From the IMG/VR virus record IMGVR_UViG_2531839265_000001, positions 1 to 25,289 of that record: DNA of 25,289 bases. One strand, given 5' to 3'. The position numbers and the translations under genes are program-made. The DNA is from a virus (taxonomy: Duplodnaviria > Heunggongvirae > Uroviricota > Caudoviricetes). The notes beneath the pieces were generated by a model that saw nothing but the letters and a program-made list of their open reading frames with translations, searched no databases and was not told the DNA's origin. Shown piece by piece: positions 6,031-6,831 of the stretch; position 1 is the first letter of the stretch; the number at the start of each line of letters is the position of its first letter.

Positions 6031-6831
6031 TTAACGCACTCTGACTGCATTAATTTCGAAGTCATCAATCTGCCTGCTATTAAGTATAACGAATGTAGAA
6101 CTCACATTACTGTACGATTTAGACAAAACCAGCCGATCATCATAGCGTGCAAGAACGTAATACCAGACATTCTCATAGTGGAGCATCTGATATTCATTCT
6201 TAAACTGGGGTTTGTACCAACCGGCAATAAGTGAAAATCCCCAGAAATAGATCATGAATCCGACCATCATACACTCAATCCAGTGATGACGAATAAAAGA
6301 CACCTCCGAAAAACATTTGACTGAAATAAGTCTTCTTCCGGACCTGACAAAAAGCGTAATTATTAAGGCAGCAATAACGCATAAAACCAGCGCATCTGGC
6401 GCAACGTGTCGATGAATTACCAAAAACTCCAGAGCGGGAGGAACAAAAAGCAGCAATATCGCCAGAAAAAGTCTGATAAAACTCAGATCCAGCACATTAT
6501 TTTTTTGCTTGATCCCCAGGAAGAAAACAACACCTGTTCCCCATCCAATCAGGAATATAACAATAACTGTAACAGCATAAAAAAGGCTTCTGGCTACATC
6601 ATCAACATCAGCCCCAACAACCCACCATGGGAAACCATAGTAAAAGGAAGTCCCCCAGCCGTAGAAGTAAGCGCTTCCCCATCCAAGACAACCCATATAA
6701 GCAACAAAAAGTGAAGAGTGCCTGAGCAGAGTACGGTCATCCATAGCAACACCATTAACATTATTAACACCATAAAAACACAACAACATGTTGCTTAACA
6801 AATAAATTCCCATGTAGTCAAGAGGCTTCAT
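6031..6831 (-). CDS. polytopic membrane protein of unknown function (266 aa) in a visibly AT-rich block
   Basis: Track ORF with multiple aromatic/Gly-rich hydrophobic segments (GWGSAYFYGWGTSFYYGFPWWVVG..., FLAILLLFVPPALEFLVI...). No family recognised. Confidence 0.6.
   Translation of the reverse strand: MKPLDYMGIYLLSNMLLCFYGVNNVNGVAMDDRTLLRHSSLFVAYMGCLGWGSAYFYGWGTSFYYGFPWWVVGADVDDVARSLFYAVTVIVIFLIGWGTGVVFFLGIKQKNNVLDLSFIRLFLAILLLFVPPALEFLVIHRHVAPDALVLCVIAALIITLFVRSGRRLISVKCFSEVSFIRHHWIECMMVGFMIYFWGFSLIAGWYKPQFKNEYQMLHYENVWYYVLARYDDRLVLSKSYSNVSSTFVILNSRQIDDFEINAVRVR

Follow-up and report, generated by a model that had tools for sequence, protein, structure and literature searches.

A TfpB-family membrane protein gene carried as a one-gene cassette downstream of the late antiterminator in a lambdoid prophage

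We analysed an open reading frame (ORF) on the minus strand, at positions 6031–6831, of a 25,289-nt stretch of viral DNA (IMG/VR record IMGVR_UViG_2531839265_000001, positions 1 to 25,289; hereafter the window) and found that its product belongs, by sequence, to the TfpB family (PF27470), which is catalogued but uncharacterised. Comparison with relatives and a structural model together indicate that it is a selected, single-gene inner-membrane protein with a conserved surface predicted to face the periplasm, encoded by a one-gene cassette that lambdoid prophages carry directly downstream of the late-gene antiterminator Q. As a function we tentatively propose a block to superinfecting phages acting at the envelope, and below we set this against other roles.

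Results

Gene model

The ORF opens with an ATG at 6831 and runs for 266 codons to a stop at 6031–6033, with the first of three tRNA genes beginning 111 nt downstream of its end. An earlier note on this DNA, made from the sequence alone, had described the product as a polytopic, aromatic-rich membrane protein encoded in DNA more AT-rich than its neighbours, and each part of this description holds. Five membrane helices are predicted, the grand average of hydropathy (GRAVY) is +0.59 with four Kyte–Doolittle peaks above 1.5, and phenylalanine, tryptophan and tyrosine together account for 18.6% of residues. The GC content of the ORF is 41.7% against 47.9% for the whole window, and the sliding profile lies at 39–43% over 6000–7000 as compared with 52–57% in the lysis genes at 3800–5000.

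That this is a real gene and not a chance ORF is indicated by 117 homologues at E ≤ 1e-3, by a median pairwise ratio of nonsynonymous to synonymous substitution (dN/dS) of 0.16, a value that denotes purifying selection, by the presence of PF27470 on an identical protein and by a match to PHROG 1521. Against the closest relative dN/dS is 0.155 (dN 0.031, dS 0.202), the divergence being mostly synonymous.

The length of 266 residues given in the earlier note is likely to be too great by 29 residues at the N-terminus. The residue equivalent to M30 is the start in all full-length members of an alignment of 32 full-length homologues, codons 1–29 (6745–6831) are aligned by no homologue and are not conserved, and in Escherichia coli strain 135, whose RefSeq product is 237 aa long, an in-frame TGA closes the equivalent stretch. 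No Shine–Dalgarno sequence stands in front of the ATG at 6831; a Shine–Dalgarno-like tetramer, GGTG, lies 5 nt upstream of the ATG at 6744. Because of the homologue starts, the TGA, the RefSeq length and the GGTG tetramer, we take the ATG at 6744 as the most likely true start, which gives a 237-aa product encoded by 6031–6744:

6031–6744, minus strand: coding sequence of the predicted TfpB-family inner-membrane protein (237 aa), from the homologue alignment, PF27470, PHROG 1521 and dN/dS
6745–6831, minus strand: non-conserved 29-codon upstream extension, most likely an untranslated leader that holds the promoter-like element, from the TGA in E. coli 135

Family assignment and distribution

Whereas the earlier note could name no family for the product, it falls in both PF27470, 'TfpB', and PHROG 1521. 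The precomputed Pfam assignment PF27470.1 is carried by all 117 homologues, among them a 266-aa protein 100% identical to the ORF product (P0001), and the family name comes from a genomic-context record. The match to phrog_1521, a family of unknown function, has an E value of 1.6e-82. The annotation 'protein tfpB' already exists for one E. coli fragment, which belongs to the cluster of a 78%-identical relative; other members are annotated only as 'hypothetical protein' or 'membrane protein'. A copy of Pfam that lacks the PF27470 model gave no match to the protein, nor did NCBIfam, and the same Pfam copy gave none when scanned with ten distant members.

The family has few members. When a profile built from 32 enterobacterial sequences was run against 1.84 billion representatives, 71 clusters reached E ≤ 1e-3, of which 20 reached E ≤ 1e-30. 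As found, the family is restricted to animal-associated Proteobacteria; a broad-alignment homologue search was dominated by enterobacterial sequences and added no named relative. Four groups can be told apart. The first consists of prophage copies in Escherichia, Shigella, Citrobacter, Salmonella, Klebsiella, Enterobacter, Cronobacter and Yersinia that are 41–93% identical, and the second of divergent Klebsiella, Enterobacter and Raoultella members at about 20% identity. The third and fourth are chromosomal, in the Pasteurellaceae (Haemophilus ducreyi, Avibacterium, Gallibacterium, Actinobacillus, Pasteurella and Mannheimia) and in Neisseria dumasiana and N. arctica, respectively. Among 5,426 complete E. 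coli genomes, 234 (~4%) carry a copy at ≥80% nucleotide identity, the best at 91.9%. A 57%-identical copy is also encoded on a 3-kb contig binned into a Veillonella metagenome-assembled genome (L003, JAIITD010000172.1), which is probably mis-binned.

A literature search found PF27470 mentioned in no paper, and for 'tfpB' returned only an unrelated Acinetobacter baylyi ATPase and 'Tfpb' in the sense of type IVb pili. The A. baylyi TfpB shares the name only, and is reported to be a second PilB-like extension ATPase, a cytoplasmic motor (PMC8213720). The family is catalogued, with no known function for any member, and the window copy is an ordinary member that resides in a degraded prophage.

Organisation of the cassette

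The gene stands between the late activator Q and the tRNA and lysis genes, which agrees with the late-operon cargo position that the earlier note had assigned to it. Presence or absence between syntenic prophages, taken with its deviant GC content, identifies it as a probable one-gene moron cassette of lambdoid prophages. It lies ~250 bp after Q in 66 of 89 loci, 50 of them with a Q of PF06323 and 16 with a Q of the unrelated PF03589. Downstream are tRNAs in 25 of 88 related loci and, in others, a small winged helix-turn-helix gene (37 loci) and a DNA methylase (31 loci), and the holins that come after the gene across loci are of three families and accompanied by differing endolysins. PPompW prophages, which otherwise match the window, run from Q directly into the tRNAs without the gene; the order in E. 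coli 135 is Q, gene, tRNA. No conserved partner gene was found in any locus examined, and the stretch from the stop at 6031 to the tRNA at 5919 holds no terminator-like site that could serve as the gene's own. By these comparisons the gene is independent of Q type and lysis type and appears to move as an autonomous cassette.

Among deposited phage genomes a copy occurs only in phage 434 (gene 68, CPT_434_68, 'putative membrane protein') and phage 2B8, both assigned to PHROG 1521 and 57% identical to the window protein over 240 residues. Gene 68 occupies the same place, directly after a Q82-like antiterminator and a terminator, but is followed by TciB, a small membrane protein, a SASA esterase and a pinholin where the window gene is followed by tRNAs. 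In the variant 434B the whole region is lost, and the phage is viable and still forms plaques (PMC9119081).

In an alignment of upstream sequences, the cassette starts just where the T-run of the terminator behind Q and the late promoter pR' ends. From there a conserved leader block and a promoter-like element travel with the gene and are identical behind both Q families. Of 34 distinct upstream sequences, 30 have the element, TTGAC(T/G)-N15-TGn-TATGxx; in 29 of these its distance to the ATG is 36–39 nt, against 47 nt in the window copy, and a search of both strands finds it once in the whole window. Its -10-like hexamer does without the canonical final T, and the window copy is weaker, so that activity of this candidate promoter is no more than plausible. 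The possibility that the element is pR' itself was rejected, as the terminator lies upstream of it and it does not differ between the two unrelated Q families; since the conserved block is the same behind both, it belongs to the gene and not to pR'. In the window the two parts are:

6792–6821, minus strand: candidate sigma-70-like promoter element, from the conserved upstream motif, with -35 TTGACT (6821–6816), TG (6800–6799) and -10-like TAAGCA (6797–6792; TATGTA in most relatives)
6822–6912, minus strand: conserved cassette leader block with the 3' remnant of a tR'-type terminator (cgccgccggacgggttttt, ~6912–6893), from homology to E. coli 135 and retention behind both Q families

Homology to E. 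coli 135 resumes at 6912, within the left arm of that strain's terminator. A leader block of ~65 nt (…gaaaaagacacagaacgttaaatgtgatggcgattgtgctatgag…) upstream of the promoter-like element (6822–6892 in the window, and in loci L002 and L009–L088) is conserved across clades, and could be a regulator-binding or UP-like region.

Predicted architecture and conserved surface

An AlphaFold2 model built from the 32-sequence close alignment was too poor for use (predicted local distance difference test, pLDDT, 61, with the N-terminus below 50). Addition of 17 distant members, giving a 48-sequence alignment, raised pLDDT to 78.9 with a predicted TM-score (pTM) of 0.73, and this second model is the one described here. 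It has five helices, at 10–36, 47–78, 89–111, 116–138 and 155–181, followed with no intervening helix by five beta strands at 184–235 that make up an all-beta C-terminal domain of ~55 residues. Lysine and arginine are enriched in the loops at 79–88 and 139–154 and absent from the loop at 37–46, in close and distant members alike, and because of this distribution the model is oriented with the N-terminus in the cytoplasm and the beta domain in the periplasm. A cysteine pair conserved in the C-terminal domain of five Pasteurellaceae/Neisseria-type members, two of them from organisms of unknown identity, fits a periplasmic disulfide.

Conservation is concentrated in helix 1 and the periplasmic turn that follows it, which reach 89% column identity around the motif AY-G-LGWGSAYFYGWG-SFYYGFPWW, and D48, R52 and S53 at the periplasmic end of helix 2 are also among the most conserved positions. 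All the invariant residues Y36, W40, W41, D48, R52, S53 and K178 map to periplasmic helix ends (helices 1, 2 and 5). Helix 1 in addition holds a glycine-zipper pattern, G21xxxA25xxxG29, read from the sequence. A lipoprotein reading was considered and rejected, as C19 is not conserved and the residues ahead of it are unlike a lipobox.

No fold or sequence relative of known function was detected. The best hit of a sequence profile search against the PDB had an E value of 4; Foldseek gave at best 0.47 against the PDB, where matches to MscS and to an SH3-like integrase domain reflect resemblance of layout only, and 0.11 against BFVD. The earlier note had named a match to a housekeeping transporter or to a phage structural or lysis protein as what would overturn its description, and the profile and fold searches returned none.

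Relatives outside prophages

We take tfpB to be the ORF of that name in the invertible type IV pilin region of Moraxella bovis and M. lacunata, an assumption for which the support here is a single metagenomic locus, L100; the name reportedly goes back to Fulks and Marrs in 1990 and Rozsa and Marrs in 1991. The phage-clade profile retrieves a Moraxella-type protein (P0143) at E 2.2e-18, and a metagenome scan with the distant sub-alignment returned L100, which encodes a relative of P0143 next to a protein 99% identical to one of M. lacunata. At L100 a pilin gene with its terminator hairpin precedes the TfpB-family gene by ~130 nt. The TfpB-family gene is flanked by two Pilin (PF00114) segments of opposite orientation, with inverted repeats as their bounds, and a gene for a Piv-like recombinase of the IS110 family adjoins the pilin segment. 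The phage protein is, on this profile evidence, a distant homologue of the Moraxella pilin-locus TfpB. The two share a length of about 240 aa, an N-terminal motif (AY-YGWG...Y(Y/H)G(Y/F)PWW) and a layout of helices followed by a C-terminal beta domain, but are only ~22% identical, and the Moraxella gene is within an invertible pilin segment whereas the phage gene is in a lambdoid late operon.

Some further features of L100 were noted. Its tfpB is interrupted by a repeat element of ~100 bp (1780–1880) with a second copy just downstream (2436–2515), and P0143 has an insertion at the corresponding position. Two further genes of the locus encode a FimB-family protein of 230 aa (PF27166; 5915–6607, minus strand) and a sulfatase-domain protein (4234–5823) that may be a PptA-like pilin-modifying transferase.

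Linkage to pilins does not extend across the family, since no prepilin motif was found within 5–6 kb in 13 loci examined besides L100. In the window the neighbours recognised by Pfam are Q, an AraC-like gene, an insertion sequence (IS) element, tRNAs and lysis genes, with no pilin gene. The surroundings of other members are as follows:

Haemophilus ducreyi: flanked by rpoH and mqo
Avibacterium: flanked by genes for an M48 peptidase and an ABC-F protein, at the same place in 14 contigs
Neisseria arctica: flanked by guaA and a SulP transporter gene
Gallibacterium: beside a capsule locus
Locus L092: after an ASCH gene
Klebsiella pneumoniae, divergent member (L104, 5274–12738): flanked by an SRAP-domain gene and umuDC, with a SASA-domain gene and genes for a 495-aa reverse transcriptase and a Hin-like invertase in the vicinity

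The Klebsiella region resembles a stretch of a mobile element rich in cargo or defence genes.

We also compared the protein with FimB/TfpY (PF27166; Pseudomonas aeruginosa TfpX/Y/Z and Dichelobacter nodosus FimB), which resemble it in size (230–245 aa), in having N-terminal helices and a periplasmic C-terminal domain, and in being encoded by a single gene after a terminator. FimB/TfpY genes, however, are always linked to pilins and TfpB-family genes mostly are not. The published TfpY fold combines three helices with a beta-alpha-beta domain, where our model has five helices and a domain that is all beta. Homology was rejected, as hhalign returned a probability of 0.2% (E 0.26) with one aligned column and the folds differ.

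The prophage in the window

Gene content identifies the window as a lambdoid prophage, with the early-right and late genes on the minus strand. The annotated features, by descending coordinate, are:

23576–24940: integrase (Pfam)
10584–11432: DUF968 (Pfam)
9886–10245: RusA (Pfam)
9200–9895, minus strand: late-gene antiterminator Q (PF06323 Phage_antiter_Q, E 1.4e-88)
9188–9216, minus strand: pR'-like late promoter TTGCAA-17-TATATT overlapping the Q stop codon, from a promoter scan; also in E. coli 135
9106–9130, minus strand: putative intrinsic terminator after the late promoter (AACCTGTC-tgac-GACAGGTT, then a T run), read from the sequence; aligns with the T-tract of the E. coli 135 terminator
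8265–9004, minus strand: AraC-family regulator gene, split (8489–9004 and 8265–8462), a second stacked cargo gene; HTH_AraC and HTH_18 on the C-terminal piece
6913–8225, plus strand: degenerate IS4-family element with split transposase (ORFs 6977–7591 and 7842–8198), 94.8% identical to E. coli IS4-family transposase genes; weak DDE_Tnp_1
5610–5919, minus strand: three tRNA genes with CAU, UGU and UCC anticodons (ARAGORN)
3823–4931, minus strand: lysis cassette of Phage_holin_8 (4467–4931), 3TM holin (4203–4439, N-terminus out of frame) and M15 peptidase endolysin (3823–4206) (Pfam)
1169–1678: Nu1 (Pfam)

Relative to E. coli 135, the window carries a 2.2-kb insertion (6913–9096) between the Q-proximal terminator (9130–9106) and the cassette, made up of two parts, the split AraC-family gene and the degenerate IS4-family element, the latter absent from E. 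coli 135. The AraC-like gene has no match at ≥80% identity in the 5,426 E. coli genomes. One junction of the insertion cuts the left arm of the cassette-proximal terminator, and both junctions coincide with terminator-like sequences, as though terminators served as sites for the stacking of cargo genes. Apart from its altered -10-like hexamer, the window copy of the cassette has a 9-nt duplication before the ribosome-binding site.

The prophage looks defective because its 3TM holin and DUF968 genes are split, though the TfpB-family ORF is intact. The holin gene (PF05449, 4203–4531) is apparently frameshifted, with its N-terminal part in the ORF at 4376–4531 and the rest in that at 4203–4439; the DUF968 gene is divided between 10258–10590 and 10584–11432. 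Two smaller observations concern other genes. The tRNA at 5844–5919 is called Met (CAT) by ARAGORN, as is its positional counterpart in E. coli 135, annotated by RefSeq as tRNA-Ile; the window tRNA is probably ileZ-like and read as Ile after lysidine modification. The integrase ORF (454 aa) has a weak excisionase-like match over residues 10–60 (E 5e-4), ahead of the arm-binding and catalytic domains, and may be either an xis-int fusion or an overextended ORF with a GTG start.

Discussion

The earlier note had named superinfection exclusion, a surface-modification enzyme and a virulence-associated membrane protein as candidate roles, and all three stay candidates on the present evidence. The role that we put forward, as a possibility and with some hesitation, is that the gene blocks superinfecting phages at the level of the envelope. 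In the lysogen it would be expressed at a low level from the cassette promoter and, we infer, more strongly after induction, by read-through of Q-modified polymerase. Working without a partner in the inner membrane, by means of a conserved pocket and a beta domain that face the periplasm, the protein would interfere with the passage across that membrane of incoming DNA or of the ejection or tape-measure apparatus, and would in this way protect the lysogen or the infected cell against superinfecting phages; the logic would be that of P22 SieA or HK97 gp15, carried out by an unrelated protein. Circumstantial support comes from the sporadic distribution of the family and its placement in cargo regions, such as the Klebsiella region with umuDC, reverse transcriptase and invertase. 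To our knowledge, the single-gene inner-membrane morons of enterobacterial prophages that have a known role are all injection blockers. SieA is the documented injection blocker among them (PMC10883804). SieA and HK97 gp15 are, like the gene described here, single-gene prophage cargo, with location in the inner membrane shown for SieA and predicted for our protein, but neither has any sequence relationship to it. SieA is a protein of 162–164 aa with three predicted helices and a cytoplasmic FxRYPxEAxxFNK motif, encoded between tail genes (PMC10883804).

A number of observations weigh against this proposal. The TfpB-family protein has no similarity to SieA, with five predicted helices in place of three and no FxRYPxEAxxFNK in its sequence; the best PADLOC hit was AbiC at E 0.026 over 58 residues, which we treated as noise; and a literature search found no experimental phenotype for any family member. 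The 89% column identity of helix 1, like the dN/dS of 0.16, would suit catalysis or the binding of a conserved host component better than an arms-race interface. The Pasteurellaceae and Neisseria copies sit amid housekeeping genes at a fixed place per species, which suggests a cellular function rather than defence. In the window itself, a degraded -10-like hexamer (TAAGCA) and the 2.2 kb of foreign DNA between Q and the gene make its expression uncertain.

A role as an accessory or modulator of type IV filaments, in which the protein would act on pilins or pseudopilins (PpdD/HCP, the type II secretion system (T2SS) or the bundle-forming pilus (BFP)) and promote or disable piliation of the lysogen, seems to us doubtful. 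It draws on the L100 member, placed within an invertible pilin segment, shortly after a pilin gene and its terminator hairpin and beside a Piv-like recombinase, and on the chromosomal members in Moraxella, Neisseria and the Pasteurellaceae, all of which make type IV pili. The order of pilin, terminator and accessory gene is, moreover, the same as that described for TfpY/FimB cassettes (PMC11841053). Yet none of the 13 other loci has a pilin-type motif within 5–6 kb, the neighbours vary between all taxa, the profile-profile comparison with FimB/TfpY was negative and the predicted fold is unlike that of TfpY, and the Moraxella locus already has a FimB-like gene of its own. Somewhat improbable, too, is an envelope enzyme or host-fitness factor whose polar and aromatic cluster binds or modifies a lipid-linked envelope molecule, be it lipopolysaccharide, a lipid carrier or a peptidoglycan precursor, and so alters the cell surface or resistance to host factors. 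The clustering of Y36, W40, W41, D48, R52, S53 and K178 at periplasmic helix ends would suit such a role, as would the restriction of the family to animal-associated Proteobacteria with chromosomal copies in fixed positions, and the slot of the gene, directly after Q, is the one that holds stx in Shiga toxin (Stx) phages.

We think it very unlikely that the protein serves lytic growth only, as an antiholin-like, lysis-timing or anti-debris-adsorption factor. It is embedded in the membrane, with the glycine-zipper pattern in helix 1, and its gene is the first after the Q-dependent late promoter, upstream of the lysis cassette; but that cassette changes across loci, with three holin families and varied endolysins, and related phages with the same lysis genes are missing the gene. 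Further, tRNAs or a DNA methylase intervene between the gene and the holins, the gene has its own promoter-like element, non-phage chromosomal members exist and 434B forms plaques without the region. A Pfam scan gave no holin match to the protein, and the window encodes its own holins. As for the window copy, there is a small chance that it is now a silent passenger of a decaying prophage to which it contributes nothing. The split 3TM holin, DUF968 and AraC-like genes, the IS4 remnant, the mutated -10-like hexamer and the 9-nt duplication would all accord with decay, whereas the ORF is intact and its divergence from the closest relative is mostly synonymous.

The post-Q slot carries toxin genes in Shiga toxin phages, and cargo found there deserves attention, here a gene that is found in the classic phage 434 and that ~4% of complete E. 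coli genomes carry. The main results of this work are a gene model with a corrected start, assignment of the product to a named family, the connection with Moraxella tfpB, the rejection of homology to FimB/TfpY and the anatomy of the cassette. A more far-reaching idea, which we consider unlikely, is that the family is a new class of stand-alone inner-membrane factor acting on type IV filament machinery (pili, competence or T2SS pseudopili), captured by lambdoid prophages in the stx-equivalent slot to remodel or disable host filaments. If that were true, the outcome for the lysogen would be superinfection exclusion, a block to DNA uptake or altered adherence, and tfpB, an orphan for 35 years, would be linked to prophage biology.

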